Shown piece after piece: positions 1,263 through 57,345 of a stretch of 64,000 nt of DNA. Source of the DNA: Candidatus Microgenomates bacterium. Its GTDB lineage: Bacteria; Patescibacteriota; Microgenomatia; UBA8517. Every line of letters begins with the position of its first letter. The first letter of the stretch is position 1. Both the position numbers and the translations under genes were made by a program. The notes under the pieces were generated by a model. The model did not search any database. It had not been told where the DNA came from and was given only the letters and a program-made list of their open reading frames with translations. Location of the stretch: the NCBI GenBank assembly GCA_049523135.1, contig JBEKNE010000001.1:287770-351769 (forward strand), read 5' to 3'.

Positions 1263-1817
1263 ATGACTAAGGAAAAAGCACTTAAGCTTTTGCGTTTAAA
1301 AATACAATCGCAAAATCTGCAGAGGCATTGTTATAGTGTTGGTGCTGTTATGTGTGCTTTGGCTGAATATTTTGGAGAAGATAAGGATTTGTGGGAAGTG
1401 GCCGGTCTTGTTCATGACATTGACTACGAAAAATATCCTGATACTCACCCCCTTAAGGGGTTAGAAATTCTTCGGAAGGAAGGTTATCCAACGGAAATTA
1501 TTGATGCAGTTGCGACCCATGCTTGGGGTTACAATGACAAATCTCCCAAGCCCAAAAACAAAATGGAGTGGTCACTATACTGTTGCGATGAACTCACAGG
1601 GCTAATTGTTGCGTGCACCCTTATCCGGCCAAGTAAAAAGATTGCAGATGTTACGGTTGATAATATTTTAAGCAAGTGGAAGTCAAAATCTTTTGCGGCA
1701 GGTGTAGACAGGAGCCAAATTGAGAAATGCGAGAAAGAACTGGGAATTCCCTTGAATGAATTTATTAGTATTTCATTAAAGGCTATGCAGGAAATCCATG
1801 AGGATTTAGGATTATAA
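1263..1817 (+). CDS. HD-domain phosphohydrolase (HDIG-like)
   Basis: HD motif (VHDIDYEKY) and a later metal-binding His-Asp region; ~180 aa, typical of stand-alone HD hydrolases. Confidence 0.65.
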   Translation: MTKEKALKLLRLKIQSQNLQRHCYSVGAVMCALAEYFGEDKDLWEVAGLVHDIDYEKYPDTHPLKGLEILRKEGYPTEIIDAVATHAWGYNDKSPKPKNKMEWSLYCCDELTGLIVACTLIRPSKKIADVTVDNILSKWKSKSFAAGVDRSQIEKCEKELGIPLNEFISISLKAMQEIHEDLGL

Positions 1818-1824
1818 TTTAAAT

Positions 1825-3069
1825 ATGCTGGATATTAATTTCATCCGCGAAAATAAGGATTTGGTGAAAAAAGGAGTTGCCGATAAACAGTTTTATCCTG
1901 GCTTGGTTGATAAGGTTTTGGATCTTGATACAGGTAGGAGAAAGTTAATTCTTGAAATAGAACAGCTTCGGGCAAAGCGCAATAAAATTGCCGAGGAGAA
2001 AAAGCCCTCCGAAGAAGGTAAGAAAATTAAGGAAGAACTGAAAGATAAAGAACCGGAGCTTGTGAAAATAACAGAGCAATATTTGGAAACTTTACAAAAA
2101 ATTCCCAATTTGCCTTCATCAAAATCCCCAATAGGTAAAAGCGACAAGGAAAATATTGAAGTCAGAAAATGGGGAACACCTACCAAATTTAATTTCAAAC
2201 CGAAAGATCATCTTGAACTTGGAAAAACGTTGGGAATACTGGACTTTGAAACGGGGGCAAAAGTTACAGGATCACAGTTTTTCTTTCTTTATGGTGACGG
2301 AGCTCTTCTCGAGCTTGCCCTGACTCACTACGTTTTTGATAAACTTGGTAAACTCGGATTTTTACCCGTAATTACGCCCGATCTTGCCAAAAGCCGATAC
2401 TACCTCGGAACCGGTTATGCACCAAAAGGCAACGAGGCTCAAACTTACACAATTGAGGGCACTGATTTGGGATTAATTGCGACGGCTGAGGTAACACTTG
2501 CCGGAGCTCATTCCGATGAAGTAATCCCTGAAGATAAACTACCTTTAAAATATGTAGGTTACTCGCACTGTTTTAGACAGGAAGCCGGAGCTTACGGAAA
2601 ATATTCAAAGGGTTTTTACAGAGTTCATCAATTTGGTAAGACGGAGATGTTTATTTACTGCAAGCCCGAGGAATCGGAAAAATTTCATGAATTAATACTG
2701 AAAATGGAGGAAGAAATTTATCAGGAACTGGGACTTCCTTATCGGGTGGTTGAAATGTGCACGGGAGATCTTGGAGCGCAGGCCTCAAGAAAATTTGATA
2801 TAGAAGTTTGGATGCCCGGAAGGGATGATTATGGGGAAGTTACCTCAACTTCTAATTGTACTGATTATCAGGCAAGAAATCTGAATATCAAATTCAGAAG
2901 GCACACTGGTGAAACAGAATATGTTCATATGCTAAATGGTACCGCGATTGTAATGTCACGTGTTCCTCTGGCAATTCTGGAAAATTTTCAACAAAAAGAC
3001 GGAAGCATTAAAATCCCCGAAGTTCTTCAAAAGTGGATGGGGAAGGAAAAGATTGAAGTTAGGAAATAA
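1825..3069 (+). CDS. serS: Seryl-tRNA synthetase
   Basis: N-terminal coiled-coil arm followed by class II catalytic motifs (GYSHCFRQEAG, FEKTEMF-like, TSTSNCTDYQARNL). Length 414 aa. Confidence 0.9.
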   Translation: MLDINFIRENKDLVKKGVADKQFYPGLVDKVLDLDTGRRKLILEIEQLRAKRNKIAEEKKPSEEGKKIKEELKDKEPELVKITEQYLETLQKIPNLPSSKSPIGKSDKENIEVRKWGTPTKFNFKPKDHLELGKTLGILDFETGAKVTGSQFFFLYGDGALLELALTHYVFDKLGKLGFLPVITPDLAKSRYYLGTGYAPKGNEAQTYTIEGTDLGLIATAEVTLAGAHSDEVIPEDKLPLKYVGYSHCFRQEAGAYGKYSKGFYRVHQFGKTEMFIYCKPEESEKFHELILKMEEEIYQELGLPYRVVEMCTGDLGAQASRKFDIEVWMPGRDDYGEVTSTSNCTDYQARNLNIKFRRHTGETEYVHMLNGTAIVMSRVPLAILENFQQKDGSIKIPEVLQKWMGKEKIEVRK

Positions 3070-3282
3070 TTATTTTCTACCGTCGCGTTTTATATGTTTT
3101 TTACAATTTTCTGCGATTCTTAGGGTTTCTGCCGGTTTTGATCCGTTTTCTCTAGGTGTTTCGCATGGCACAATTGGAGAATGTTTTTCAGACTCTTGTG
3201 GAGGTGGATTTAAATTTGGCTTTCTTTCCATGTGACAATAAATAAAGGATAATCGGAATAGATTAAATTTCAATAAGTAGAT

Positions 3283-4461
3283 TTAGCTTTCAAATTTTTT
3301 GAAATATTTTTTCCCTTGGAGTTTTTCGGGTAGATGGCTTTGGGTGTCATATTTTTCATAACCCTCTCCATAGCCAACATCTTTCATCAATTTTGTAACG
3401 GGATTTCGGATTTTGAGAGGAACCGGAAGATTGCCGAATTTATTAACATCAGCTAGAGCTTCCATGTATGCATTATAAGCACTGCGGTCTTTTTTGGCGT
3501 TTGCTAGGTAGGTAACTCCTGCTGCCAGATTTTCCTGACACTCTGGATAACCGATCTCGTTACAGGCTTGAAAAACCGCATTGGCCACAACCAGTGCAGT
3601 TGGAGAGGCAACGTCCTCTGAAGCGAATACAACCATCCTGCGGGCAATGTAGAGAGGATCCTGACCTGCAGCAACCATTCTGGCCAGATAGTAAAGAGCT
3701 GCATCGGTATCGCTTGCGCGCATTGATTTTATGAATGCCGAAATGACATTGTAAAAATCCTCTCCGCGCTTATCGAAAGTGTATTGACGTCTTTGAAGTG
3801 CGGTTTCGAGATCGGGAATTTTTATAGTGGGGGTTTTAACAAGGCTTGATGCAATTTCCAAAACATTAAGCATTACGCGGGCGTCCCCATTACTGGCTTC
3901 CAACAAAAACTTTTCTGCTTCTTTTCCTAATTTTTTCTTAACCTGTTTGAGGGCTCTGTCCAAAATTTTTAATAAATCTTTTTCTGAGAGCTGCTCTAAA
4001 ATTAAAACACGGCACCTGGAAAGAAGCGGTCCGATTACTTCAAAAGAAGGATTTTCTGTTGTGGCCCCTATCAAAATTATGTCGCCGTGTTCAACATGAG
4101 GGAGAAGCTTATCCTGCTGGGCTTTATTAAATCTGTGGATTTCATCCAAGAATATAATTGGAGAATTTGTTAATTTAAGCTGTTTTTGATCCTGAATTAA
4201 AGATTCAATGTCTTTGACTTTTGTGTTAACTGCAGAAAATTCAAAGAATTCCCGTTTTAAAGTTGCAGCGATTATTCTTGCCAGTGTTGTTTTTCCCGAG
4301 CCGGGCGGACCCCAAAAAATCAGCGACGGGAAAAAATTTGATGTTTTTGCGTTGACAAAAAGCTTGGAAATTATTCCGTCTTTTCCAACCAAGTCTTCCT
4401 GTCCGACAAAATCTTTTAAAGTTTTTGGGCGTAATTTTTCTGGGAGGGGAATATTGTTCAT
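3283..4461 (-). CDS. rarA: Replication-associated recombination protein A (AAA+ ATPase RarA/MgsA)
   Basis: Walker A GPPGSGKTT and Walker B/sensor region FLDEIHRFNKAQQD. The conserved MgsA C-terminal domain is present. Start moved to the internal ATG (MNNIPLPEKLRP...), which matches the conserved RarA N-terminus. Confidence 0.85.
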   Translation of the reverse strand: MNNIPLPEKLRPKTLKDFVGQEDLVGKDGIISKLFVNAKTSNFFPSLIFWGPPGSGKTTLARIIAATLKREFFEFSAVNTKVKDIESLIQDQKQLKLTNSPIIFLDEIHRFNKAQQDKLLPHVEHGDIILIGATTENPSFEVIGPLLSRCRVLILEQLSEKDLLKILDRALKQVKKKLGKEAEKFLLEASNGDARVMLNVLEIASSLVKTPTIKIPDLETALQRRQYTFDKRGEDFYNVISAFIKSMRASDTDAALYYLARMVAAGQDPLYIARRMVVFASEDVASPTALVVANAVFQACNEIGYPECQENLAAGVTYLANAKKDRSAYNAYMEALADVNKFGNLPVPLKIRNPVTKLMKDVGYGEGYEKYDTQSHLPEKLQGKKYFKKFES

Positions 4462-4529
4462 TGAGTATTTTATATCACCAAACAAAATCCGAAACAAGTA
4501 TGCACTTCAGCTTGCGCTATAATCAAATT

Positions 4530-5156
4530 ATGTTGGGAACGAGGGTCTTGGAAGAAAGAGAATCAAAATACAACGGCAATCTGCGCGTGATTAATACTTT
4601 TGGAATGGGAACTTATATCCAAGCGGATGGGCTTACACAGTCAGGGGGAATAGTGGAAACAATTTGGAGACAAACTATCAAGAAAGTTAAAAGTAAAAAA
4701 CCGAAAGCTAAAAATTGTCTAATCTTGGGGCTTGGTGGCGGAACTGTGGCAAAATTAATTAAAAAAAACTGGCCGGAAGTTAGAATTGCAGGAATCGAAA
4801 TAGATCCGATTATGATAGAACTCGGGAAAAAATATTTAGGACTGGATCAGTTAGAGGTTGAAACAAAAATTGGAGACGCGTTTCAAGTAAATCAAAAATT
4901 AAAAAATGAAAAGTTTGATTTAATTATTGTCGATTTATATAACGGCGATAAATTTCCCGAAAAATTTGGAACGGAAAACTATATACGGTTTATGAGGACA
5001 ATTCTTACAAGTGGGGGAATTGTCGTTTTCAATCGTTTATATTATGGAGACAAAAGGCCGGAGACGGTAAAGTTTGGAGATAAACTCAAAAAAATCTTTT
5101 CGGAAGTTGAATGGTTTTATCCTGAGGCTAATTTGATGTTTCTTTGTTCAGGGTAG
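4530..5156 (+). CDS. Spermidine-synthase-like class I SAM-dependent methyltransferase-fold protein (short form)
   Basis: Gly-rich SAM/dcSAM loop LILGLGGGTVA and an IVDLYNGD acidic motif resembling aminopropyltransferases. Start placed at the ATG 6 nt downstream of a TATAAT (4518-4523). The upstream in-frame ATG at 4500 is the alternative. Confidence 0.5.
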   Translation: MLGTRVLEERESKYNGNLRVINTFGMGTYIQADGLTQSGGIVETIWRQTIKKVKSKKPKAKNCLILGLGGGTVAKLIKKNWPEVRIAGIEIDPIMIELGKKYLGLDQLEVETKIGDAFQVNQKLKNEKFDLIIVDLYNGDKFPEKFGTENYIRFMRTILTSGGIVVFNRLYYGDKRPETVKFGDKLKKIFSEVEWFYPEANLMFLCSG

Positions 5157-5182
5157 CTTCAAACCTGCTACAATATATAGCG

Positions 5183-7900
5183 ATGCTTAATATATTTTCT
5201 AGAATTTTGGATCTTAACGCCCGCGAAATTGACAGAGTCGGAAGAATTGTTGAGGAAATTAATTCATTTGAACCGAAAGTTAAAAAACTTAAGGATAAAG
5301 ATTTTGCCAAAAAAACCGAGGAGTTCAAAGAGAGAATCTCAAAAGGCGAATCTTTGGAAAAAATTCTTCCCGAGGCTTATGCACTTGTCCGCGAAGCTTC
5401 TTATAGAATCCTCGGAATGCGGCATTACGACGTTCAGCTTATGGCTGCAGTAGCGCTTTTCGAAGGCAAAGTTGCGGAACAAAAGACCGGAGAAGGAAAA
5501 ACTTTATCGGCTGTTCCCGCACTTTATCTCCATGCTTTAACGGGACGTGGTGCCCATCTTGTTACTGTAAATGATTATCTTGCCAGAAGGGATGCCGGCT
5601 GGAATGCACCTGTTTTTAATCTTTTGGGAATGAGTGTGGGTTCGATTATTCAGGAAAATAAATCATTTGTTTATGATCCTGAATTTACCGATTCAAGTCA
5701 TGGGGATGAAAGACTTGCCCACCTTAAACCTGCAGAAAGAAAACTGGCTTACCAAAGCGATATTTTATACGGAACCAATAATGAATTTGGTTTTGATTAC
5801 CTTAGAGATAACATGGTTTCCTCATTACCTGAAATGGTCCAGCGCGGGCACTATTTTGCAATAGTTGATGAGGTGGATTCCATTTTGATTGATGAAGCCA
5901 GAACCCCGCTTATTATTTCCGCTCCTGATACGGAACCGACGGATAAATATTATAAATTTGCTTCCATGGTTGATAAGTTAAATCCGGATACGGATTATAC
6001 AATTGATGAAAAAGCCAAAAGCGCGAGCCTAACGGAAACAGGAATTACTCGAGTAGAAAAAATACTCGGAGTGGACAACCTTTATGAAAAGGACTTCGAA
6101 TCAATTCATCATATTGAAAATGCTCTCCGGGCAAGAACTTTGTATCTCCGGGATAAAGATTATGTGGTTAAAGATAATCAAGTCATAATTGTTGACGAAT
6201 TTACGGGACGTCTTATGGTCGGCCGCCGCTGGAGTGACGGACTTCATCAGGCGGTTGAAGCAAAAGAGGGTGTGACGATTCAGCAGGAAAGCAAAACCTT
6301 GGCAACAATTTCTTTTCAAAATTACTTCAGAATGTATGAGCATCTTAGCGGAATGACGGGTACCGCCGCAACCGAGGCGGAGGAATTCAGAAAAATTTAT
6401 AAGTTGGAAGTTATTGTTGTTCCGACTAATAAACCAATGATCAGGCGCGACCTGCCTGACGTGATTTATAAGACCTTGAGAGGAAAGTATGGTGCAATTG
6501 TTAATGAAATTGGGGAGTGTTATAAAAAAGGGCAACCTGTGCTTGTAGGTACAACCTCAATTGAGAAGAATGAAATAATTTCGGAATATCTTAAAAGAAA
6601 GAAAATTCCTCATAATGTTCTAAACGCCAAAAATCACGAAAAAGAGGCGGAAATTATTGCTGAAGCCGGAAAACCGAGCGCGGTAACTGTTGCCACCAAC
6701 ATGGCCGGCCGTGGAGTTGATATAGTTCTCGGCGGTGCGGCTCCCGATAGATTGCCAGGGGTTAGTAATGAAAAATTCGAGTCGTTACCGGCTTATAAGG
6801 AGTGGAAGAAAGTTCATGAAAAAGTTGTAAAAGCAGGTGGTCTTCATGTAATTGGAACTGAACGTCATGAGGCACGTCGTGTAGATAATCAGCTTAGAGG
6901 AAGAAGCGGTCGTCAGGGAGATCCCGGAAGTTCCCGTTTTTACCTTTCAATGGAAGACGATCTTATGAGAATTTTCGGAGGGGAACAAATCGGGGGAATC
7001 ATGGGCAGGCTAAATCTTCCCGAAGACCAACCGATTGAAAATTCGTTAATCAGTCGTGCTATTGAGCAGGCACAGGTAAAAGTTGAAGGATTCCATTTTG
7101 ATATCAGAAAACGTCTTGTTGAATTTGATGATGTTGCAAACCAGCAAAGAGATATTATTTATAAACTAAGGAGGAGAATTCTTGACTCGAGTGACGTTAA
7201 AAGGGAGGTTCAGGAAAAACTCCATCAGCAAATAGAAAATACCGTACTTTTGAGCAAATCCGCAACAGATGAAAAATTTGATTATGAAAGGTTAGCGGTA
7301 GGACTTGCTGATATTATTCCTTTTGATGACGCTTCTTTAAAAAGAATCAAATCTCAACTCTCAAATATTGGGTCTCAAGAAGAAATTCAAAAATTTCTTG
7401 ATACTGTTTTGATGGATGTCTACGAGAAAAGGGAAAAAGATTTGAGTGCCAAAGTAATGAGAGAAGTTGAAAAGTTTGCCTATCTAGGTTCAATTGATCA
7501 TCTTTGGATGGATCACATTGATCATATTGATGATCTCCGCGAAGGCGTAACTCTCAGGGCCTACGGGCAGAGAGATCCTTTAGTTGAATTTAAAAATGAA
7601 GCCTACAATTTGTTTGAAAATTTAGTTAATAGAATTGATGAGGAGCTATCCCACAGAATCTTCAGAATTGGAGTTGCAATGCCGCAACCTGAAATTCCTT
7701 TGAATTTGGCAAGAGAAAATATAGATAGAAGTGATATGGAGGGTTTAGCCGGTAATGCGGAGCAGACAGCCAAATCCGGTGAGCCTGCTTTTGCCAAGTC
7801 AAATGTGGTGCATAAAAAAATCGGAAGAAATGATCCCTGCTGGTGTGGAAGCGGAAAAAAGTGGAAGCATTGCCACTATCCCCAATTGCCACCGAATTAA
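5183..7900 (+). CDS. secA: Preprotein translocase ATPase SecA
   Basis: Full-length SecA with its DEAD-like motor and a C-terminal zinc-binding tail CWCGSGKKWKHCH. Start chosen at MLNIFSRILD, which aligns to canonical SecA N-termini. Confidence 0.95.
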   Translation: MLNIFSRILDLNAREIDRVGRIVEEINSFEPKVKKLKDKDFAKKTEEFKERISKGESLEKILPEAYALVREASYRILGMRHYDVQLMAAVALFEGKVAEQKTGEGKTLSAVPALYLHALTGRGAHLVTVNDYLARRDAGWNAPVFNLLGMSVGSIIQENKSFVYDPEFTDSSHGDERLAHLKPAERKLAYQSDILYGTNNEFGFDYLRDNMVSSLPEMVQRGHYFAIVDEVDSILIDEARTPLIISAPDTEPTDKYYKFASMVDKLNPDTDYTIDEKAKSASLTETGITRVEKILGVDNLYEKDFESIHHIENALRARTLYLRDKDYVVKDNQVIIVDEFTGRLMVGRRWSDGLHQAVEAKEGVTIQQESKTLATISFQNYFRMYEHLSGMTGTAATEAEEFRKIYKLEVIVVPTNKPMIRRDLPDVIYKTLRGKYGAIVNEIGECYKKGQPVLVGTTSIEKNEIISEYLKRKKIPHNVLNAKNHEKEAEIIAEAGKPSAVTVATNMAGRGVDIVLGGAAPDRLPGVSNEKFESLPAYKEWKKVHEKVVKAGGLHVIGTERHEARRVDNQLRGRSGRQGDPGSSRFYLSMEDDLMRIFGGEQIGGIMGRLNLPEDQPIENSLISRAIEQAQVKVEGFHFDIRKRLVEFDDVANQQRDIIYKLRRRILDSSDVKREVQEKLHQQIENTVLLSKSATDEKFDYERLAVGLADIIPFDDASLKRIKSQLSNIGSQEEIQKFLDTVLMDVYEKREKDLSAKVMREVEKFAYLGSIDHLWMDHIDHIDDLREGVTLRAYGQRDPLVEFKNEAYNLFENLVNRIDEELSHRIFRIGVAMPQPEIPLNLARENIDRSDMEGLAGNAEQTAKSGEPAFAKSNVVHKKIGRNDPCWCGSGKKWKHCHYPQLPPN

Positions 7901-7911
7901 TTTGTTATAAT
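7886..7911 (+). promoter_or_regulatory. Possible promoter (TTGCCA - 14 nt - TATAAT) 7 nt upstream of the FKBP ATG
   Basis: TATAAT at 7906-7911 with the ATG at 7919. The -35 spacing is suboptimal. Confidence 0.3.
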
Positions 7912-7918
7912 AACTTCC

Positions 7919-8431
7919 ATGAATAAGCAATATTTATTTGTTACGATTTTTCTTATTGTTTTAATCATTGGTGGTGTAATTTTTACCTTTTCTGGGAAAA
8001 AGGAAGAAAAGCAAGTATTACAAACCCCAACTCCTTCTGCTACTATTACTCCTGAGGCATCAGAGACGCCGGCGGCAACAGAGTCTGCTAAAATACAAAC
8101 CATGGAAGACGGATTACAAATTCAAGATGAAGTAGTGGGAACAGGGGTAGAAGCAGTAAGTGGGAAAAGCGTAACGGTAAATTATGTCGGAACTCTTACC
8201 GACGGGACAAAATTTGACAGCTCTTATGACAGAAACCAACCCTTTACCTTTACACTTGGCGCCGGTGAAGTTATTCAGGGATGGGATCAGGGAGTTGCCG
8301 GAATGAAGGTTGGAGGAAAAAGAAAATTAACAATTCCTTCGTCTCTCGGATACGGTGCGACAGGAGCCGGTGGGGCAATTCCTCCCAATGCGACTTTAAT
8401 TTTTGAAGTAGAACTTCTTAAGGTTGAATAA
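7919..8431 (+). CDS. Membrane-anchored FKBP-type peptidyl-prolyl cis-trans isomerase
   Basis: N-terminal TM helix, then a Thr/Pro/Ala-rich linker, then an FKBP domain (VTVNYVGTLTDGTKFDSSYDRNQPFTFTLGAGEVIQGWDQG...LIFEVELL). Confidence 0.8.
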   Translation: MNKQYLFVTIFLIVLIIGGVIFTFSGKKEEKQVLQTPTPSATITPEASETPAATESAKIQTMEDGLQIQDEVVGTGVEAVSGKSVTVNYVGTLTDGTKFDSSYDRNQPFTFTLGAGEVIQGWDQGVAGMKVGGKRKLTIPSSLGYGATGAGGAIPPNATLIFEVELLKVE

Positions 8432-9534
8432 TGGCAAGAAAGTTTTTTAAGTCTAGAAGTAGCAATATTCCTCTGCCGATATTTTTTCCGGATGCAACAC
8501 GGGCAGTTGTAAGGTCGATCGATACATCTGATCTTGAATCTTCAAAAACTCCGGGCGTTTTAGTAAATACTTTTCATCTTTGGCAGGAGCTTAATGAGAG
8601 CACTTTAAAAAAATTTGACGGAATCGCAAAATTCATGGGTTTTAAGGGTGGAATAATCTCTGATTCCGGGGGATTCCAAGTAATGTCTGTGATTAAATCC
8701 GGAAATGTTAAAGGAAGAATTACGGACGAAGGTGTTGTTTTTTATCCAACCAGAAAAACCAAAAAAATTTTAACTCCGGAAAAATCAATTGATTTTCAGA
8801 TTGAGTTGAAAAGCGATATGGTTATCGTACTGGATGATTTTACGAATCCGAAATCTTCATATAAAGAAGCTAGAGAGTCGGTTGAGCGGACTATCTTTTG
8901 GGCAAAGCGCAGTAAAGATGAATTTATCAAAGTTTGTGATCGGGAGAAACTTGGTGAGGCCGAAAGACCCTACATTTTGGGTGTAGTGCAAGGCGGGAAG
9001 TACCAAGATCTTAGAAAATATTGTGCGGAAGAACTGACAAAGATTGGTTTTGATGGCTTGGGTTTCGGTGGTTGGCCGATTGATGATAAAGGAAATTTTG
9101 ATCTTGATTCGGCAAAGACAATTGTCGAAAACACACCCGAAAATTATTTTTTGTACGGACTCGGAGTCGGAAAACCGGAGGATATTATTAAATGCGTCAA
9201 ATTGGGATTTAATATTTTTGATTGTGTTTTACCGACACGTGACGCGCGGCACGAGCGGCTCTATATTTACAACGCCGGATCGATTGATGAAATTAATATA
9301 ATGAAGCCCGATTTTTATTCTTTTTATAGACCCGATAGGGAAAAATGTTTAGATGATGGCTCCCCAGTAAGCCTTGCTTGTGATTGTCTTCTTTGTAAAA
9401 AATACTCAAAAGCTTATCTTGCACACCTTTTTAAAATTAACGACTTTACCGCCGGTAGGCTTGCGACGATTCATAATTTGAGATTTTATTCCATATTTAT
9501 GGAAAAACTTCGGGAAACTCTTGACAGGAAGTAG
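8431..9534 (+). CDS. tgt: tRNA-guanine transglycosylase family (queuine tRNA-ribosyltransferase-like)
   Basis: Catalytic DSGGFQ and FDCV motifs and a C-terminal zinc site CDCLLC...H. The N-terminus is shorter and more divergent than classical bacterial Tgt. Confidence 0.8.
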   Translation: MARKFFKSRSSNIPLPIFFPDATRAVVRSIDTSDLESSKTPGVLVNTFHLWQELNESTLKKFDGIAKFMGFKGGIISDSGGFQVMSVIKSGNVKGRITDEGVVFYPTRKTKKILTPEKSIDFQIELKSDMVIVLDDFTNPKSSYKEARESVERTIFWAKRSKDEFIKVCDREKLGEAERPYILGVVQGGKYQDLRKYCAEELTKIGFDGLGFGGWPIDDKGNFDLDSAKTIVENTPENYFLYGLGVGKPEDIIKCVKLGFNIFDCVLPTRDARHERLYIYNAGSIDEINIMKPDFYSFYRPDREKCLDDGSPVSLACDCLLCKKYSKAYLAHLFKINDFTAGRLATIHNLRFYSIFMEKLRETLDRK

Positions 9535-9550
9535 TGTAAGTGTTTATACT
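9521..9550 (+). promoter_or_regulatory. Sigma70-like promoter (TTGACA - 18 nt - TATACT) ~11 nt upstream of the 9562 start codon
   Basis: Perfect -35 hexamer TTGACA at 9521-9526 and TATACT at 9545-9550. No Shine-Dalgarno between the -10 and the ATG. Confidence 0.45.
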
Positions 9551-9561
9551 GCTACGCAAAT

Positions 9562-10215
9562 ATGGAAGACGAACAAAATTCGCAAAGTCAGACACAGGAA
9601 AGTCCTCAAGTTTCCAGTCCAACACAGGGAAACGGGGTTTCTTTCCCGACAGTAGGTGAACCAAAGAAAAGCGGGGGAGCAAAAACCTTGTTGATTATTG
9701 GAATTCTTATATTAGTCGGAATACTTGGATTTGTGATTTATAAAAATGCTTCTAAAGGAAGTGAGACAACTTTAACTCAGCCAACACCTTATGACAATTT
9801 AACAACTTCGGATCAGAATCAAGCTACTACGGTAGCTACGGCAACACCGGCAGCTTTCGATAGAAGTAAAATTAAAGTCCAAATTCAAAACGGAACAGGT
9901 ATTGCAGGAGAAGCAGCATATCTCCAAACTCAGTTAAAGGGATTGGGATATACAAGTGTTTCAGTTGCGAATTCCGCTCAGCAAAATTTAACCACTGCAC
10001 AGGTTAGTTTCTCGAGTTCGCTTTCACAAAGTGCGGTTGATGAGCTGACTAATGAACTTAATTCAATTTATCAAAATGTTACCAGTACGAATTCCGCGAG
10101 CCCCACTTATGATGTTGTTATCATAACAGGACTCAGAAAAGGAGCGACAGCTAAGCCTTCGGCTACACCAACTTCGACTCCGGCCGCTACGCCGACAGCT
10201 TCACCTACTCCGTAA
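9562..10215 (+). CDS. Membrane-anchored LytR_C-like domain protein with Pro/Thr/Ala-rich termini
   Basis: TM helix, a LytR_C-like core (KVQIQNGTGIAGEAAYLQTQLKGLGY) and a low-complexity C-terminal tail ATAKPSATPTSTPAATPTASPTP. Confidence 0.5.
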   Translation: MEDEQNSQSQTQESPQVSSPTQGNGVSFPTVGEPKKSGGAKTLLIIGILILVGILGFVIYKNASKGSETTLTQPTPYDNLTTSDQNQATTVATATPAAFDRSKIKVQIQNGTGIAGEAAYLQTQLKGLGYTSVSVANSAQQNLTTAQVSFSSSLSQSAVDELTNELNSIYQNVTSTNSASPTYDVVIITGLRKGATAKPSATPTSTPAATPTASPTP

Positions 10216-10237
10216 TTCTTCTGTGTTAAAATAAATT

Positions 10238-10699
10238 GTGGCAAGTATAGCTAAACTTATCGTCGGCAGTTTTACTTTAAACTTGGGAAAGTTTTCTCTC
10301 CCCGTTACCTATATTCAGGCAATTGCAGTTCTTGCCCTTATTTTTTTTCTTGTCTTAATTCTTGCGCAGTTTAGGAGGCACTATGTCAACTGGTCTTTTA
10401 AAGGAGCCCTGTTTGGAATTGTTATCGGTTTTTTATTGGCTTTAGCTCTTGAAGGATTCTTACTTGTTGGTGGGAAAACCGTACTGATAAGTGTTTTGGG
10501 CTGGAAAAACCCGCCCGCTCCAATCTCAAATGCACTTGATGCAGGAAGAAGTAAATTGCTTCAGGTTTTGGGAACGGAAACTCAGGTTTCACCGACTCTT
10601 ATACAGGATGAAGTTACTGTAACCAATGCAATTGAACTTTTTCAAAGTTTAAACCCGACTGATATAAAAAAGGTAAAGTCGATTATTTGCCAACCTTGA
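10238..10699 (+). CDS. Hypothetical polytopic membrane protein
   Basis: GTG start; 3 predicted hydrophobic helices; no family recognised. Confidence 0.4.
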   Translation: MASIAKLIVGSFTLNLGKFSLPVTYIQAIAVLALIFFLVLILAQFRRHYVNWSFKGALFGIVIGFLLALALEGFLLVGGKTVLISVLGWKNPPAPISNALDAGRSKLLQVLGTETQVSPTLIQDEVTVTNAIELFQSLNPTDIKKVKSIICQP

Positions 10700-10756
10700 T
10701 TTTTGTTCCCGCCCTTTACTTTTAACTTTTGCCTTCTTTGGATATACTTCAGATAT

Positions 10757-11806
10757 ATGCAAGATATTGATGGAAAGGTTGATCAAATGACCTCCCGTTT
10801 GAATAAATTAATTGAGGTGGTGGATATTCCGAGTAAAAAGAAGAAAATAGAGGAACTTGAGGCTAAAGCGGCTGAGCCTTCTCTTTGGAACGATCCTCAA
10901 AGTGCCCGCGGGGTTACGCAGGAGCTTTCCGACCTGAAAAAGGAGGTGGAGGAAATTACCGATCTTTCGGATACGTTGGAAATTCTGAAGGAAGTGCCGG
11001 ATGAAGCCGAGGCCAGAAAGGCCGAGAAAGCTCTCGGGAAGCTTGAGCTAATATCTTATTTATCGGGTGAATATGATGCTAAAAACGCCCTAATTTCAAT
11101 CCATGCCGGCCAGGGAGGGACTGAAGCGATGGATTGGACAAATATGCTTTACCGCATGTATCTCAGGTTCTGCGAGCGTCAGGGATGGCCTACAGAGACT
11201 CTGGATTACACGGCTGGGGAAGAAGCCGGAGTCAAAAGTGTAACTTTTAAGGTTACGGGGCACTTCGCCTATGGCTACCTTAAGGGTGAGGCAGGAACCC
11301 ACAGGCTTGTCAGACAGTCTCCATTCAATGCGGATAAGCTTAGGCAAACTTCATTCGCCTTGGTTGAAGTGATGCCTGAGCTTGCCGATACCGATCTTAA
11401 GGATATTGAGATCAAGGATACCGACCTGGATTGGCAGTTCATTCACGCAGGAGGACATGGGGGTCAGAATGTAAATAAGGTGGCGACAGCAGTCCGGCTT
11501 ACCCACGTCCCGACAGGGATTGTAATTACGGCTTCAACCGAACGTTTTCAGGAACAAAATAGAAAAGCAGCCCTGGAACTACTGCGTGCCAAGCTTTGGA
11601 TTAGGCAGCAGGAAGTTGAGAAAGGTTTGAAAAAGGAGATTAAGGGTGACTATCGTCCGGCTTCATGGGGAACTCAAATCCGAAGCTATGTTCTTCATCC
11701 ATATAAGATGGTTAAAGATCTTCGTACGGATGTGGAAATCGGAAATACTGAGGCCGTTCTTGATGGAGGAATTGATGAATTTATAGATGCTGAGTTAAAA
11801 CTCTAA
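10757..11806 (+). CDS. prfB: Peptide chain release factor 2 (contiguous ORF, no programmed +1 frameshift)
   Basis: SPF tripeptide (RQSPFNA) and GGQ motif (HAGGHGGQNVNK); aligns along its length with RF2. Start at MQDIDGKVDQ, by homology with RF2 N-termini. Confidence 0.9.
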   Translation: MQDIDGKVDQMTSRLNKLIEVVDIPSKKKKIEELEAKAAEPSLWNDPQSARGVTQELSDLKKEVEEITDLSDTLEILKEVPDEAEARKAEKALGKLELISYLSGEYDAKNALISIHAGQGGTEAMDWTNMLYRMYLRFCERQGWPTETLDYTAGEEAGVKSVTFKVTGHFAYGYLKGEAGTHRLVRQSPFNADKLRQTSFALVEVMPELADTDLKDIEIKDTDLDWQFIHAGGHGGQNVNKVATAVRLTHVPTGIVITASTERFQEQNRKAALELLRAKLWIRQQEVEKGLKKEIKGDYRPASWGTQIRSYVLHPYKMVKDLRTDVEIGNTEAVLDGGIDEFIDAELKL

Positions 11807-11854
11807 TTTGGATTTGCTTTTTTGAGTTTTTAGGTGTTATATTGAGGTTAACCT

Positions 11855-12286
11855 ATGGAACCTCAAAATAAAAATATTTTCTCCAGGATTGATTTCAAAA
11901 AAAACTGGCCGTTTATTGCAATAGGATTGGCAATTATTCTTATCGGAGTCGGAACCTCATGGTTTATTTCTACAAGGTTAATAAATCAAACCAGCAGTGG
12001 TGAAGCTGCTCCTGGAGTAAAAGTTACTTCAACTGAAGCCGGAGTGCTGGATCCAAGCGTTAAGTATGATACTGCACAGGGGGTTGTGCAGGAGGGCGGA
12101 CTAAATGGTGAGGGTACTTTTCACCTTGTTCGTGACGGCGGACCATCCGACTATGTTTATTTAACTTCAAGTGTTCTTGATCTGAGTAATTTTGTTAATA
12201 AAAAAGTACAGATTTGGGGAGAAACTCTTGCTTCCAAAAAAGTCGGCTGGCTAATGGACGTAGCCAAGGTCCAGGTAACCCAGTAA
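11855..12286 (+). CDS. Hypothetical membrane-anchored exported protein
   Basis: N-terminal TM anchor followed by a Ser/Thr/Gly-rich linker and a small beta-rich domain. Confidence 0.4.
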   Translation: MEPQNKNIFSRIDFKKNWPFIAIGLAIILIGVGTSWFISTRLINQTSSGEAAPGVKVTSTEAGVLDPSVKYDTAQGVVQEGGLNGEGTFHLVRDGGPSDYVYLTSSVLDLSNFVNKKVQIWGETLASKKVGWLMDVAKVQVTQ

Positions 12287-45752: not shown

Positions 45753-47255
45753 GTGGAAGAAGATGCTTTTGGAGGTCATATTGATCCTACATCCGAGATA
45801 AACCTTGAGACTGTTAAAGGAAGAACAGTAAAAGGGATAGTTGCCTTAACCCAACAGTATTTTGGCGTTTATATAATCACCATAATTGCCTACTTCTTCC
45901 TGGGTAAATTTTTGAACCCTGTGCTTTTTGGGACATTTGGGGTAGTCTCGGCAATTATCAACTTTTTGGTTTACTTTTCCGATATCGGGTTAGCAGCTTC
46001 CTTAATTCAGAAAAAAGAAAAGATTACTCAAGAAGACTTGAGAACAACTTTTACAATTCAGCAAATCCTTGTATTTACCCTGGTAGCAATTGTTATCGGT
46101 GCAACTTCTCTTATAAGACGGTTTTACAACCTGGATCAGAGTTCCGTATATCTTCTTTATGCACTTTGTTTTTCTTTCATAATGTCCTCACTTAAATCAG
46201 TGCCGTCGGTAATCTTGGAGAGACATTTAAAATTCGAAATAATTGCCCTTTCAGCAGTTATAGAAACCACGGTTTACAATGTAATTTTGGTATTTTTTGC
46301 TTGGAAAGGGTTTGGAATTACCAGTTTTACTATTTCGGTAATTGCGAGAGGAATCATTGGTGTAATAGTTTTGTATTTGTTTCAGCCATGGAGACCGGTG
46401 CTCCAGATATCCAGACCGTCACTTAAAAAACTTCTTGTTTTTGGAATTCCTTATCAAATAAACACGTTTATTGCCGTTGTTAAAGATGATGGATTAACTC
46501 TAATTTTGGGTAGAGTAATAGGATTGGGACCTCTTGGAATTCTTTCCTGGGCCCAAGGATGGATTCAAATGCCCCTGAGAGTAATTCTTGATAATGTAAC
46601 CAGAGTTACTTTCCCTGCCTTTTCCAGAATGCAGGATAAAACCGATGAATTAAAAAAGAGCGTAACAAGTTCTATCTTTTTTATTACCTTTTTAGTTTTC
46701 CCTGCGGTTACCGGAATTGTTATTTTGGCCCCTATTGTTTTTCAGACGATACCTAAATTCCAGCAGTGGATGCCTGCAGTTATCCCTCTTACTTTTCTTG
46801 CGGTGAATGTTCTTTTTGCCGCGGTTACGACACAATTAACCAATCTTCTCAATGCAGTGGGTAAGATCAAAATAACTTCAGGCCTCATGATAATGTGGAC
46901 TGCTTTAACTTGGATTCTTGTTCCCTATTTAGGGGTGAAATATGGAGTAAATGGAGCCTCGTTAGGTTATGCGATTGTTGGAGCATCTTCGGTTGTGGCA
47001 ATAGCAATAGCGAAAAGATATGTTGATTTTTCTCTATCGGAAAGTACTCTTAAACCGCTTTTAGCTTCATTTGTAATGGGAGTAACCTTGTTCGTTTTGA
47101 GAAGATTTTTACCTGTTAATCTTTACTCAATATTTATATTGACTATAGTGGGAATGGTGACTTATTTTGCTTCAATTTTTGCTCTTGTCGGGATGTCGAT
47201 AGTTACAGACGTTAAGAGAGTTGTCGGATTAATAATTCACAAAAATGAAGCTTAA
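45753..47255 (+). CDS. Wzx-like MOP-superfamily polysaccharide/oligosaccharide flippase
   Basis: GTG start directly after an in-frame TGA. 12-14 TM helices with the MOP/Wzx N-terminal pattern (KG..VKG...L.....FG...). Confidence 0.7.
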   Translation: MEEDAFGGHIDPTSEINLETVKGRTVKGIVALTQQYFGVYIITIIAYFFLGKFLNPVLFGTFGVVSAIINFLVYFSDIGLAASLIQKKEKITQEDLRTTFTIQQILVFTLVAIVIGATSLIRRFYNLDQSSVYLLYALCFSFIMSSLKSVPSVILERHLKFEIIALSAVIETTVYNVILVFFAWKGFGITSFTISVIARGIIGVIVLYLFQPWRPVLQISRPSLKKLLVFGIPYQINTFIAVVKDDGLTLILGRVIGLGPLGILSWAQGWIQMPLRVILDNVTRVTFPAFSRMQDKTDELKKSVTSSIFFITFLVFPAVTGIVILAPIVFQTIPKFQQWMPAVIPLTFLAVNVLFAAVTTQLTNLLNAVGKIKITSGLMIMWTALTWILVPYLGVKYGVNGASLGYAIVGASSVVAIAIAKRYVDFSLSESTLKPLLASFVMGVTLFVLRRFLPVNLYSIFILTIVGMVTYFASIFALVGMSIVTDVKRVVGLIIHKNEA

Positions 47256-54108: not shown

Positions 54109-55903
54109 GCCCTATCTTTGACGGGTCAACGACGGGTTTCATTGCTTTGGGGTAGTAAAGAATATTTGCACTGGATTTTTCAAAAGCCGATTTCACTTCA
54201 TTGATATTTTTATCCGAAAATACGGTAGTTTTTATATCCAACCTTGGTTTCCAATTATAGCCCATGATATCCACTTGTTCGTAGTCGTCCATGAAAGTTC
54301 TTCTATCCGAAAATGCGGCGAGGTAAGATGTATCAAACCAATCCCAAATATTTGGAGTATCTCCTCCGAGATTAAGATATGGATTGTATGGAGGAGTTAG
54401 TATTACCGAATTTTGTGGAGTATCTTTCTTTAAGAAATTTATTGCTTGCAGTTCCTGTGCGCTTATCATTGCGTAAGCCGGTCGGGAATAAAATTCATAA
54501 AGTAGGCCAACTTGAGTCGGAATCATTAAGAGAATGATCATAGGTATAAGTAGTTTGTATTTAGAAGTAAGCTTGGAAACTTCTATACCTGCCAGAATTC
54601 CGAAAAAGAGCAAAAAGTATTGTAAAAATTGAATGGTGTTACTAGCTATACCATTCTGCAGGAATAGGAGAGGAAAGATAATCGATAGTGCAATTGCAAC
54701 CTTAATAAATAAGTGTGTTTTCAAATACTGACGTAGCCCCAGGAATCTCATACCCAGGTTACCGAAAAAGAAAATCAAGAAGGCAATACCTTCGTACTCA
54801 ATTACTCTTAAAATAGATTTGATTCCTCCATGGGCTACGTAAAATTCCCTTCTGAGTTCCAAGTCTAGCCAATTAAGCCTAGAAGGTTCTACCACCATTG
54901 TCCGTATATACCACCAAGGTTGGAAAATTAGAAACGAGGTTGAATTGGAGGCGTTTGGAAAATATAGGAATACAGATAAAGCTCCACTTATGATGGTCAG
55001 GAATATAAGTGTTATATCCTTTTTCCTAAAAAACTTCCATAGACTATAAATGCCGAGGGAAATTAGAGCTATAATTCCGGCATAAACTTTAAAACTGACT
55101 AGGGTTCCAAAAAGGATTATACAAATTATAAATAAGATATTTCTTTTCTTTTTATCTTTTTCCCGCTCTAAACTTATCAAAAAATATAAAGCGGTAAAAA
55201 TCAGAAAATCCGATGCTATTTGAGGAGAATTTCCGCTTGCACTTTGTGGCTGGCTGGCCCAGAAAATACTTTCTCCGCCGATGGTTCTATTTTTTAGATA
55301 AGTAACGATAAATCCAAAACTTCCGGCGAAATAGGAAAAAATTGTTGACCAGATAGCAGCTGATTTTTCCCCATCAGCTTTTTTTATCAGAAAGTATGCA
55401 GATACACCAAAGAACAGAGAGTAAATAAAAGGAAATATGCGAAAATATAAATCAATGTTGTTAACCGGTGTATATTTACTTACAACCGCTGGCAATATAT
55501 CACTGAAGAAATGATAGTTGACGAGTTTTTCTCCGGCAAGAACAGGATTTTGGAAAGGCCAGCCTCTTTTTATTTCATTCATAAGGGCAATATGCCAGCT
55601 TCCGTCGTGTCCATTAGAACTCCAAAAAAGTAAGTCTCCTGCTTTATCAAAAGTTCCACTTGGGGAAATCACCGCTAATTGTCCCGCAATACCAACAACA
55701 AAGACCAAAATTGTAATGATGGCGGTTAAATCAAATTTGACCCTAATAGATTTAACTATTTTAATGAATGACTTTGCTGCCAGTATTACCCCGATAATTA
55801 CAATTGGGATAATAAGATATAATCCGTGAATTAATATTAAAAGATAGGAGATAAGTGTTAATGTGGCAAATGCAGCAATTCCACTCATTAGTATTTCTTC
55901 CAT
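54065..55903 (-). CDS. Uncharacterised polytopic membrane protein, 'NGHDGxWH' family (family B paralog)
   Basis: SSNGHDGSWHIAL, FAGSFGF...GGESIFW and a C-terminal VILTPPYN...AFSDRRTF domain, collinear with 47245... Start set at the internal ATG (MEEILMSG...); the longest ORF begins with TTG at 55936. Confidence 0.5.
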   Translation of the reverse strand: MEEILMSGIAAFATLTLISYLLILIHGLYLIIPIVIIGVILAAKSFIKIVKSIRVKFDLTAIITILVFVVGIAGQLAVISPSGTFDKAGDLLFWSSNGHDGSWHIALMNEIKRGWPFQNPVLAGEKLVNYHFFSDILPAVVSKYTPVNNIDLYFRIFPFIYSLFFGVSAYFLIKKADGEKSAAIWSTIFSYFAGSFGFIVTYLKNRTIGGESIFWASQPQSASGNSPQIASDFLIFTALYFLISLEREKDKKKRNILFIICIILFGTLVSFKVYAGIIALISLGIYSLWKFFRKKDITLIFLTIISGALSVFLYFPNASNSTSFLIFQPWWYIRTMVVEPSRLNWLDLELRREFYVAHGGIKSILRVIEYEGIAFLIFFFGNLGMRFLGLRQYLKTHLFIKVAIALSIIFPLLFLQNGIASNTIQFLQYFLLFFGILAGIEVSKLTSKYKLLIPMIILLMIPTQVGLLYEFYSRPAYAMISAQELQAINFLKKDTPQNSVILTPPYNPYLNLGGDTPNIWDWFDTSYLAAFSDRRTFMDDYEQVDIMGYNWKPRLDIKTTVFSDKNINEVKSAFEKSSANILYYPKAMKPVVDPSKIGLKLIFENEDVEIWK

Positions 55904-55929
55904 ATATAAATTATATATAATAGTAGCAT

Positions 55930-57345
55930 ATGGCAAAGAAGTTGTGGCTAATTCTTCTCGGAATTGTAACTCTGGGGTTTGTTATAAGGGTTTACAAAAT
56001 TCAATCCCTTCCTATGTATGGTGACGAGTTGACGATGGTTTATGATGAATACTCCATTCTTAAAACCGGAATGGATGCAACAGGTCAAAAATTTCCCTTA
56101 ACTTTCAAGATGGGAGCAGGACGACCTGGTGGGTATATTTATTTTTCTGTTCCATTTGTTGCAGTTTTCGGACCCACGCTTTGGGGAGAAAGAACACTAT
56201 CCCTACTTTCAGGTCTTGGGATTATAGTCCTGATGTATTTCTTGGGTAAAAAACTTTTTAACGAAAAAGTTGGGATAATAGCATCTCTTCTTACTGCTGT
56301 TTGTCCTTGGGACATTTATCTAAGTCGGGCCGGTTTTGAGGCGCATTTTGCTTTATTTTTGGCGCTTTTGGGAGTAGTATTTTTTCTTGATAAAAAATAT
56401 ATTGGGTGGGCAATTGCATGGGGACTCACCATTTTTACGTATCCAACCTTTAAATTAACTCTTCCTTTAATGTTAATTTTTCTAGTTTTTTGGAAAGGAA
56501 TTAAAGATATTGTTAAGGATAAAATTTTTTGGATAGGAATTGTTGTTCTTGCAGTTTTCGGATTAATAATCGGTTATCAAACGTTTTTTGCGGGAAGCGA
56601 GCAAAGATTTTTCTCACTAAATATTTTTTCTGATGAAACCATAAAAAACAACATTATTCAGACTGTTGACAATGACAGGAATTTTGCGACATTGCCAATA
56701 GTTTTTAAGGATATATTTATAAATAGAGAAATTGAATATGGAAGGCTTCTTCTTGATAATTATGTAGCCAATCTTTCTCCGGATTTTCTATTTTTGAGGG
56801 GTGATGGACAACCACGCGACAATCCGGGAGAAATGGGAATGCTTTATTTAATTGATTTTCCGCTCTTGATTGCAGGTTTGGTTCTTCTTTGGAAAGATGA
56901 AAGAAAAAAATTTACTCTTCTTTTGGCTTGGATTTTAATTACCCCTTTAGCAACAATGTTTTTTATGAATCCGCATGCACTGAGAAATGATTTGATGATA
57001 CCACCACTGCTTGTAATTATTTCCTACGCTTTTACAAAGATATCAAGAAAGTTTACTTATGTTGCAATCGCTCTTATTGCAATTCAACTAATTTATATAT
57101 TAGTACATATTTACAATATTGCCCCTGCAAAGTTTGTATCGTTTTGGTCGGCGGATGCGGAATCGGTTGCTTTGAAAGCTATCCAGGCTCAAAAATCGGG
57201 ACAAAAAGTAACCTTAAATGTAACAAAAGTAGATAATATTGAATATGCATATGAAGTTTATGCGAAACTAGATCCGCGGGAAGTTATTGCCCAGTCGGGC
57301 AAATTTCCTAAAGTTTATGGCAATGTTACAATTACTGACAAATAA
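55930..57345 (+). CDS. GT-C membrane glycosyltransferase, ArnT/PMT-like (family A2)
   Basis: First-loop YGDELTMVYDEYSIL motif; polytopic; 471 aa. Confidence 0.7.
   Translation: MAKKLWLILLGIVTLGFVIRVYKIQSLPMYGDELTMVYDEYSILKTGMDATGQKFPLTFKMGAGRPGGYIYFSVPFVAVFGPTLWGERTLSLLSGLGIIVLMYFLGKKLFNEKVGIIASLLTAVCPWDIYLSRAGFEAHFALFLALLGVVFFLDKKYIGWAIAWGLTIFTYPTFKLTLPLMLIFLVFWKGIKDIVKDKIFWIGIVVLAVFGLIIGYQTFFAGSEQRFFSLNIFSDETIKNNIIQTVDNDRNFATLPIVFKDIFINREIEYGRLLLDNYVANLSPDFLFLRGDGQPRDNPGEMGMLYLIDFPLLIAGLVLLWKDERKKFTLLLAWILITPLATMFFMNPHALRNDLMIPPLLVIISYAFTKISRKFTYVAIALIAIQLIYILVHIYNIAPAKFVSFWSADAESVALKAIQAQKSGQKVTLNVTKVDNIEYAYEVYAKLDPREVIAQSGKFPKVYGNVTITDK

Follow-up and report, generated by a model that had tools for sequence, protein, structure and literature searches.

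Promoter-like -10 boxes abutting the start codons of unit-first genes point to leaderless expression in a Woesebacteria-like Microgenomates bacterium

Leaderless mRNAs have been amply described in Actinobacteria, Deinococcus-Thermus and archaea, and the possibility that they represent an ancestral form of translation initiation is often raised. In mycobacteria, the -10 element is of the TANNNT type without a conserved -35 element, and GUG is accepted as well as AUG. Sigma-70 promoters with an extended -10 element (TGnTATAAT) are well known in Escherichia coli and common in Firmicutes. The subject of this work is a comparable arrangement, a -10-like hexamer almost abutting the start codon, in a 64,000-nt stretch of DNA (hereafter, the window) from a Candidatus Microgenomates bacterium (GenBank assembly GCA_049523135.1, contig JBEKNE010000001.1, positions 287,770 to 351,769 of the forward strand). 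The closest described system is group C of the GeneMarkS-2 classification (Lomsadze et al. 2018, PMC6028130), in which the first genes of operons have a Pribnow box at a distance of 6-8 nt from their starts; Actinobacteria and Deinococcus-Thermus dominate this group, leaderless units make up 25-50% of all units, and mapped leaderless examples are given for Mycobacterium tuberculosis, M. smegmatis, Corynebacterium glutamicum, Streptomyces coelicolor and Deinococcus deserti. In contrast, the motifs of group B in the same classification precede leading and internal genes alike and cannot be promoters (PMC6028130). For the candidate phyla radiation (CPR), Tsurumaki et al. (2022, PMC9297842) found low detection of the anti-Shine-Dalgarno (anti-SD) sequence only in a subgroup of Parcubacteria and made no mention of leaderless mRNAs, and none of the papers found by our search of the open-access literature for leaderless transcripts or Shine-Dalgarno (SD) usage together with CPR, Patescibacteria, Microgenomates, Woesebacteria or Saccharibacteria described leaderless expression in these lineages. 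The mechanism is already known as the bacterial leaderless signature, and the new part is the lineage, for which no report was found.

The host of the window is a Woesebacteria-like member of the Microgenomates (CPR/Patescibacteria), a small-genome groundwater bacterium; more than 100 SecA relatives are found at 78-89% identity, several of which carry the Woesebacteria name. A 41-mer taken from secA had no exact match among the GTDB representative genomes. The GC content of the window is 38%, and 59 long open reading frames (ORFs) were called, 52 of them on the plus strand. The window resembles group C in having a putative -10 box 6-8 nt from the starts of unit-first genes, with no SD sequence at those genes, and in a predicted leaderless share of the same order as 25-50%; it resembles mycobacteria in the TANNNT form of the box without a conserved -35 element and in the use of GTG besides ATG. 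Several differences from group C were also found. The genome is low in GC (38%), smaller than about 1 Mb and of CPR origin, in contrast to the high-GC genomes of the known examples; a TGn extension is common here (13 of 24 boxes); group C has a clear SD model for internal genes, whereas here 7 of 28 internal genes are SD-like and 19 of 28 overlap the upstream stop codon; and the known examples were mapped experimentally, whereas the starts proposed for the present lineage are predictions from sequence. Classical extended -10 promoters share with the window the TG one base 5' of the hexamer and the dispensable -35 element, but they drive leadered mRNAs, whereas here the start codon would be the expected transcription start. 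Bacteroidota and other group B genomes likewise combine low genome-wide SD use with AT-rich sequence before starts; the motif of the window differs from theirs in being promoter-like and in marking unit-first genes. The ribosomal study of the CPR (PMC9297842) concerns the same radiation and its relaxed SD dependence, but describes features of rRNA and ribosomal proteins, and in the clade studied here a full AAGGAGGTGAT precedes one conserved internal gene in a relative, which argues that the anti-SD is retained.

The first-pass annotation of the window had pointed to -10-like hexamers directly before the ATG of seven genes, namely serS, the gene at 4530, the gene for an FKBP isomerase, those at 9562 and 18812, an rfbF-like gene and the gene at 55930. 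All seven hexamers were recovered where they had been placed, with gaps of 6, 6, 7, 11, 10, 7 and 8 nt, respectively, the gap being the number of nucleotides between the end of the hexamer and the start codon. This set was too small, however, as about 21-24 starts in the window carry such a box, including those of secA, prfA, trmD and several glycosyltransferase genes. When starts were assigned by a rule blind to the motif (the first in-frame ATG of each long ORF, 58 genes tested), TANNNT beginning at -14 to -12, which corresponds to gaps of 6-8 nt and is referred to below as in register, preceded 23 of the 58 genes, compared with 96 of 1682 (5.7%) other ATGs of the window (p = 3e-14) and with a rate of 6.3% at shifted offsets within the same upstream regions. 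The 24 nt preceding the starts are 70% A+T, and the suggestion that the excess might disappear once AT content is accounted for was therefore examined by dinucleotide-preserving shuffles of these 24 nt (n = 2000). The shuffles gave a mean of 7.6 boxed genes (sd 2.4, maximum 17; z = 6.5 for the observed 23), and AT-richness was rejected as the cause of the excess on this basis. The positional profile showed a sharp peak at gaps of 6-8 nt above a flat background, and the result depended little on how starts were called, with 27 of 82 third-party gene calls boxed (8 of 82 at a control offset) and 17 of 58 longest-ORF starts (4 of 58). The TG-extended form TGnTANNNT, beginning at -17 to -15, was found at 10 of the 58 genes where the shuffles predicted 0.32 (z = 17.6), and an unsupervised expectation-maximization motif search of the 30 nt upstream of all genes returned TGCTACAAT in the window and TGATATAAT in relatives. 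Among 24 curated boxes, the gap is 5 nt in three, 6 nt in seven, 7 nt in six, 8 nt in three, 10 nt in two and 11 nt in three; the hexamer has a TG one base to its 5' side in 13, and the start codon is ATG in 22 and GTG in two.

The box is not distributed evenly among genes. A strong box was found at 20 of the 30 genes that lie apart from, or diverge from, their upstream neighbor, compared with 3 of the 28 that overlap or abut it (Fisher p = 1.3e-5), and among the genes heading a unit, about two in three have a putative -10 box 5-11 nt before the start codon without a ribosome-binding site. The earlier description of the boxed genes as operon-leading agrees with this concentration, but that status is itself deduced, serS lies only 7 nt after a co-directional gene, and three boxes precede genes that overlap their neighbor.

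SD pairing was evaluated as the duplex energy of the 18 nt upstream of each start with ACCUCCUUA. Starts were no better than random positions (mean -1.86 and -1.94 kcal/mol, respectively), which bears out the low SD frequency expected from the first-pass annotation, and an energy of -6 kcal/mol or lower was reached by 8 of the 58 genes of the window versus 7.6% of random positions. The absence of a recognizable SD sequence at the seven genes first listed was borne out as well, only serS reaching -4.0 kcal/mol. With a threshold of -5.4 kcal/mol or better, SD-like duplexes were found at 2 of the 30 separated genes, at 7 of the 28 internal genes and at about 12% of random positions. For instance, a native internal ORF of 97 aa at 964 is preceded by AAGGTGAT, and its orthologue in the relative's locus L085 (L081-L093 denote loci from relatives) by AAGGAGGTGAT, so that the SD-like character is conserved; because AAGGAGGTGAT precedes a conserved internal gene in L085, the anti-SD appears to have been retained in the clade, in line with PMC9297842, where its detection was low only in a Parcubacteria subgroup. 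Overlap with the upstream stop codon was seen at 19 of the 28 internal genes (4 nt at 16 of them, 1 nt at three), and these genes are probably translated through coupling of termination and reinitiation.

The strongest SD sequence of the window, AAGGAG at -8.7 kcal/mol, belongs to the gene at 19495, which had been regarded as a foreign cassette gene whose SD sequence set it apart from its surroundings. The strength of this SD sequence was verified, but the contrast gives the argument weak support, since native internal genes are SD-like as well. As for its foreign origin, the gene is missing at this position in three relatives, although no clear compositional anomaly was found; in these three relatives the rml genes directly follow the YkuK-like gene. 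The gene (19495-20181, plus strand) lies in a region from 19313 to 20463 in which its flanking gaps, 182 and 282 nt, are the two longest intergenic distances. Its 228-aa product has no Pfam or NCBIfam match, and a 209-aa antisense ORF (19417-20046) overlaps it.

Comparisons with relatives were made for about 22 kb around secA in seven related genomes (SecA 79-88% identical) and for 10-12 kb around the YkuK-like gene in three further genomes. With the same blind pipeline, TANNNT was in register at 55 of 155 genes of the relatives, compared with 13 of 155 at the control offset, and TGnTANNNT at 22 of 155; an SD energy of -6 kcal/mol or lower was found for 8% of these genes. In orthologous loci, the box and its spacing are conserved while the flanks diverge, an arrangement that is also kept for secA, prfA, trmD, the YkuK-like gene and two hypothetical genes. 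On these counts, the putative box is a property of the clade rather than a local one (about 22 kb per relative). As negative controls, SecA-anchored loci were taken from many phyla at SecA identities to the window of 55% or less; AT-rich loci (GC 0.29-0.40) were among them. TANNNT was in register at 3% of genes in Bacillota, Pseudomonadota and Chloroflexota and at 8% in Acidobacteriota and Nitrospirota, and SD energies of -6 kcal/mol or lower were found for 23-45% of genes in non-CPR loci, as against 8-11% in the clade. Other loci labeled as CPR were intermediate in this small sample (17 of 84 genes, 5 of 84 at the control offset), which suggests that the trait is wider across the CPR radiation.

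Taken together, these results make it likely that the boxed genes are expressed from leaderless or near-leaderless mRNAs. Bacterial RNA polymerase starts 6-9 nt past the -10 hexamer, preferably at a purine, and therefore, with gaps of 6-7 nt, transcription is expected to start at the A of the ATG. According to this model, all that remains of the sigma-70-type promoter at the head of most transcription units would be its -10 element, which ends 5-8 nt before the start codon, carries the extended TGn in about half of the cases and usually lacks a recognizable -35 element. The transcript would begin at the A of the ATG or the G of the GTG, yielding a leaderless mRNA that is translated without SD:anti-SD pairing. 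In a smaller class, with gaps of 10-13 nt and in some cases a canonical -35 element, leaders of about 3-7 nt would be made, still without an SD sequence. Downstream genes would start mostly by stop-codon overlap (ATGA or TAATG), and as only about one quarter of them are SD-like, coupling by termination and reinitiation is probable. A transcription start at or within a few nucleotides of the ATG, as the first-pass annotation had proposed, is thus favored by the sequence tests, except that gaps of 10-11 nt (9562 and 18812) imply leaders of 3-5 nt and are not strictly leaderless. Leaderless expression would also account for how genes are expressed whose starts lie 23-26 nt apart or 7 nt past a neighbor.

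Several observations weigh against this interpretation. Ten of the 30 separated genes have no strong in-register box, including ftsE, the gene at 19495 and a GalU-like gene at 17867, whose box lies at 13 nt and, in L093, at 24 nt together with an SD-like AAAGGA. Terminator-like hairpins and intrinsic terminators were not enriched in positions 1-20000 and were unusable to delimit units; therefore, read-through polycistronic transcripts may coexist with short ones. Three boxes lie inside the upstream coding sequence, before genes that overlap their neighbor (13010, 15673 and 16665), and their conservation could be explained by codon constraint. The loci of the relatives are related phylogenetically, so that the pooled counts are made up of non-independent events, and both the positions of transcription starts and the mode of translation initiation are read from sequence alone. 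Finally, no enrichment of -35 elements was found for the 24 boxes, for which the mean best match was 2.58 of 6 positions compared with 2.50 of 6 at random positions, and therefore promoter strength would rest on the -10 or extended -10 element alone. A match of at least 4 of 6 was seen for only three boxes (9562, 6 of 6; 18812, 4 of 6; 28666, 4 of 6). The several good -35 hexamers reported earlier were reduced to TTGACA with an 18-nt spacer at 9562 and TTGATC with a 17-nt spacer at 18812, the signal that accompanies the hexamer being TGn. A scan for two-hexamer promoters was unspecific (65 matches, 42 expected) and confirmed only the promoters of the LytR_C gene at 9562 and of 18812. The putative promoters of the window are of the -10 or extended -10 type and lack the canonical two-element form, for which the LytR_C promoter is the exception.

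It is also conceivable, if improbable, that the boxes are real promoters and the mRNAs are nevertheless leadered, either because the true starts lie downstream or because the transcripts come from other upstream promoters and the boxes are only weak internal ones. Such an arrangement would fit with the frequent mis-calling of starts by third-party gene callers in this lineage, with boxes found at 13-24 nt (the GalU-like gene at 17867, and Lon in L081 at 21 nt), and with the read-through that is likely when terminators are not enriched. However, the starts of serS, rfbF, secA, trmD and four family 2 glycosyltransferase (GT2) genes are fixed by canonical N-termini or by Pfam domains that begin at residues 1-10. 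The Seryl_tRNA_N domain begins at residue 1 of the serS product, the NTP_transferase domain at residue 3 of the rfbF-like product, and the GT2 domain at residues 9 (25276), 6 (28666), 9 (31294) and 5 (36806); TrmD has its canonical N-terminus MKIDILTLFP from ATG 28642, and the length of SecA from ATG 5183 agrees with that of its homologues. Most homologues of the YkuK-like protein are 166 aa long, the same as the product from ATG 18812, and the N-termini of orthologues align from residue 1. Leadered mRNAs are also at odds with the gaps, which peak sharply at 6-8 nt instead of being spread, and with three divergent pairs that have boxes back to back, each 6-8 nt from its own ATG. The start codons of these pairs are 23 nt (trmD and GT2-GtrA), 26 nt (55903 and 55930) and 48 nt (31245 and 31294) apart, and therefore conventional leaders have no room.

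At least ten third-party gene calls in the examined loci misplace the start around a box (4530/4548 in the window; 10001 and 13404 in L088; 15540 in L085; 10001 in L086; 9293 and 16296 in L087; 10938 in L092; 10862 and 10875 in L093). The misplaced calls are either TTG or GTG codons up- or downstream of the true ATG, or ATG codons within or abutting the box, and in these cases the N-termini of orthologues place the start 6-8 nt beyond the box, which points to systematic start errors in CPR annotations.

A further alternative is that the hexamer is not a promoter at all but a non-SD translation signal on a leadered mRNA, such as an S1-binding or unstructured enhancer of the kind found in group B. 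A/U-rich sequence near starts generally favors initiation; in addition, SD sequences are hardly used in this genome, so that another aid to initiation would be needed, and three boxes precede genes that overlap their neighbor. We regard this explanation as somewhat less probable still, since conservation falls on the bases that sigma-70 contacts (TG at -15/-14 and, within the hexamer, the T, the A and the final T), and since TTGACA-N18-TATACT at the LytR_C gene is invariant in eight genomes. The concentration of the motif at separated genes (20 of 30, as against 3 of 28 internal genes) is likewise unlike that of group B motifs, which precede all genes (PMC6028130). The TGT gene provides a natural experiment in this respect, in which the putative box is linked to the unit-first position: in five genomes a distance of 16-47 nt separates TGT from its neighbor and it has a box followed by N6-7, whereas in three genomes, including that of the window, it overlaps its neighbor and has no box; it is therefore boxed only when it heads a unit. 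That the pattern is a functionless by-product of AT-rich short spacers with TAA or TAG stops beside starts, as the 70% A+T of the last 24 nt and the upstream stop codon contained in the serS box might suggest, has practically no chance of being correct in view of the shuffles (23 boxed genes compared with 7.6 +/- 2.4 after shuffling, and 10 compared with 0.3 when the TG extension is required), of AT-rich non-CPR loci (GC 0.29-0.40) in which the same pipeline found only 0-19% of genes with TANNNT in register, and of L088, where serS keeps its box though the upstream gene ends 93 nt away.

If leaderless expression is accepted for the boxed genes, the signature extends the leaderless phenomenon to a large and deep bacterial branch with reduced ribosomes and provides a concrete, testable list of promoters and starts for ultra-small, uncultivated organisms without genetics; gene finding that is aware of leaderless starts should improve CPR proteomes. 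A broader proposal is that leaderless initiation is the main mode for unit-first genes in Woesebacteria and other Microgenomates and is weaker across other CPR, with overlap coupling at internal genes and with SD usage nearly abandoned though the anti-SD is retained. We put this forward tentatively, as a generalization for which belief and doubt are close to balanced, with doubt slightly ahead. If it holds, the reduced CPR ribosome, in which bS1 is short and bL9 and uL30 are missing (PMC9297842), would be tied to an SD-independent and possibly ancestral mode of initiation, and starts would be mis-called in thousands of CPR genomes by callers without a leaderless model.

The boxed starts of the window are described below in order and are on the plus strand unless stated otherwise. 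At serS (1813-1827), TATAAT (1813-1818) is followed by a 6-nt spacer and ATG 1825; the box shares nucleotides with the stop codon of the co-directional HD-domain gene that ends 7 nt upstream of serS, and TATAAT-N6-ATG is found in four of four orthologous loci, including L088 with its upstream gap of 93 nt. On the minus strand, an mgsA-like AAA ATPase gene (4461-4474) has TGATATAAAAT before ATG 4461, which is also the third-party start, and its box may be read either as TAAAAT (4467-4472, 5-nt gap) or as TATAAA (4469-4474, 7-nt gap); the orthologues have TAAAAT, TAGAAT or TATAAG, then N6 and ATG. The gene for a spermine-synthase-like methyltransferase (4518-4532) has TATAAT (4518-4523), a 6-nt spacer and ATG 4530, and this start, given in the first-pass annotation, agrees with the orthologue N-termini M[LI]GTK[VI]LEER. 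Two other starts for this gene, the database start at TTG 4548, which is too short, and ATG 4500 from the blind rule, are both wrong according to the same N-termini.

Extended -10 elements precede the next two genes. At secA (5166-5185), TGCTACAAT (hexamer 5169-5174) is followed by an 8-nt spacer and ATG 5183, and TGnTACAAT or TAAAAT is kept in most of eight orthologous loci; the 905-aa product is 100% identical to a protein named SecA by NCBI from 'Candidatus Microgenomates bacterium'. The FKBP isomerase gene (7903-7921) has TGTTATAAT (hexamer 7906-7911), a 7-nt spacer and ATG 7919. When seven orthologous upstream regions of the latter were aligned, the invariant columns were for the most part TG-TAT--T and, at the start codon, TG, and the arrangement is present in seven of seven relatives' loci. 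The LytR_C gene (9521-9564) has TTGACA (9521-9526), an 18-nt spacer, TATACT (9545-9550), an 11-nt spacer and ATG 9562; it was the top match of the two-hexamer scan (11 of 12), and TTGACA, TTATACT and ATGGAA are invariant in eight of eight genomes, the spacer being fixed in length and variable in sequence. A leader of 3-5 nt is predicted for this gene.

The gene for a 153-aa hypothetical protein (10224-10240) has TGTTAAAAT (hexamer 10227-10232), a 5-nt spacer and GTG 10238, and its orthologues have TGCTAAAAT-N8-ATG, TGGTACAAT-N8-GTG and TGCTATGAT-N8-ATG. At prfA (10743-10759), TATACT (10743-10748), an 8-nt spacer and ATG 10757 were found, and TATACT, N6-8 (N12 at one locus) and ATG recur in six of six orthologous loci. 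The gene for a 143-aa hypothetical protein (11835-11857) has TGTTATATT (hexamer 11838-11843), an 11-nt spacer containing GAGG, and ATG 11855. TG[TG]TATA[TG]T is kept in six loci at gaps of 6 or 11 nt, and this case is ambiguous between a leaderless-type start and a short leader with a weak SD sequence.

Three of the boxes lie within upstream genes. At ftsX (12995-13012), TGGTAAAAT (hexamer 12998-13003), a 6-nt spacer and ATG 13010 were found, the box lying inside ftsE, at its 3' end; five of six orthologous loci have the extended box, for which the coding constraint on ftsE is a possible cause, and it is a candidate internal promoter. The epimerase gene (15654-15675) has TGCTACAAT (hexamer 15657-15662) within the upstream vanZ-like gene, a 10-nt spacer and ATG 15673; this box was not conserved in L085, L092 and L093 and is the weakest of the boxed set. 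The CAP-domain gene (16650-16667) has TGCTAATAT (hexamer 16653-16658), a 6-nt spacer and ATG 16665, with TGTTAATAT-N6-ATG in L085 and GATATAAT in L092 and L093; its box is within the 3' end of the epimerase gene and overlaps conserved C-terminal codons.

The YkuK/RNaseH-like gene (18773-18814) has TTGATC (18773-18778), a 17-nt spacer, TATAAT (18796-18801), a 10-nt spacer and ATG 18812. GTATAATTTGA.CCT..ATG is kept in four of four loci, and a leader of 3-4 nt is predicted. The rfbF-like nucleotidyltransferase gene (20448-20466) follows with TGCTACTAT (hexamer 20451-20456), a 7-nt spacer and ATG 20464. A GT2 gene (25259-25278) has TATCAT (25259-25264), an 11-nt spacer and ATG 25276, with moderate support. 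The minus-strand GT2 gene next to it (24239-25264) probably starts at ATG 25210 rather than at 25264; in the long form, the GT2 domain does not begin before residue 31, and a TATAAT is found 13 nt ahead of ATG 25210. With the long form, the start codons of this gene and of the gene at 25276 would be only 11 nt apart.

In the divergent pair of trmD (minus strand, ATG 28642) and the GT2-GtrA gene (plus strand, ATG 28666), which spans 28640-28668, the boxes overlap back to back. The trmD box TGATACAAT has its hexamer at 28649-28654 on the minus strand with a gap of 6 nt, and the GT2-GtrA box TATCAT lies at 28653-28658 on the plus strand with a gap of 7 nt; TGATACAAT-N6-ATGAAAATTGA is kept at trmD in L092 and L093, and TGGTAGAAT-N6 in L091. 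In the second divergent pair (31243-31296), the minus-strand gene has TGCTAATAT-N7-ATG 31245 (hexamer 31253-31258) and the plus-strand gene TGCTAGACT-N7-ATG 31294 (hexamer 31281-31286). In the third (55901-55932), the minus-strand gene has TATAAT-N6-ATG 55903 (hexamer 55910-55915) and the plus-strand gene, a member of the PMT_2 family, TATAAT-N8-ATG 55930 (hexamer 55916-55921). Between these pairs, a further GT2 gene (36790-36808) has TGCTACAAT (hexamer 36793-36798), a 7-nt spacer and ATG 36806, and a polysaccharide-biosynthesis flippase-like gene (45738-45755) has TGCTACAAT (hexamer 45741-45746), a 6-nt spacer and GTG 45753.

Other upstream arrangements were also seen. The ftsE gene (ATG 12342), which has no -10 box at 6-8 nt, is preceded at about 12295-12325 by a conserved block, CTGGCTTT-N6-8-TTTTCACTTG[CA]TAC[CT]CT, which is found 25-45 nt upstream of the gene in six genomes (that of the window, L084, L085, L087, L088 and L090) and may act as a regulatory element or as the promoter of a leadered transcript. 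Upstream of lon in L081 (1340-1395) and L087 (1225-1282), a conserved TTGACA-N17-TAGACT is followed by GCTAAAAC and a leader of 12-21 nt without an SD sequence, so that the leaderless type is found side by side with canonical two-element promoters whose leaders are short. The greA gene has no in-register -10 box; a terminator-like hairpin with a GC stem and a T-run lies directly 5' of it in L081 (about 7135-7186), L084, L085, L087 and L090, and an SD-like GAGG is present in L084.

Scans of the window for tRNA genes and for Rfam families were both negative. Each 4-kb bin of the window (1-64000) has a positive GC skew, and a disparity in strand composition is reported for a complete Microgenomates genome (PMC7143001). 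Positions 42730-63720 of the window hold a run of about ten ORFs (470-565 aa), most of them co-directional and many overlapping by 4 nt; the gene at 55930, the only ORF of this run that was tested, matches the PMT_2 glycosyltransferase family, and the run looks like a paralogous array of membrane glycosyltransferases.

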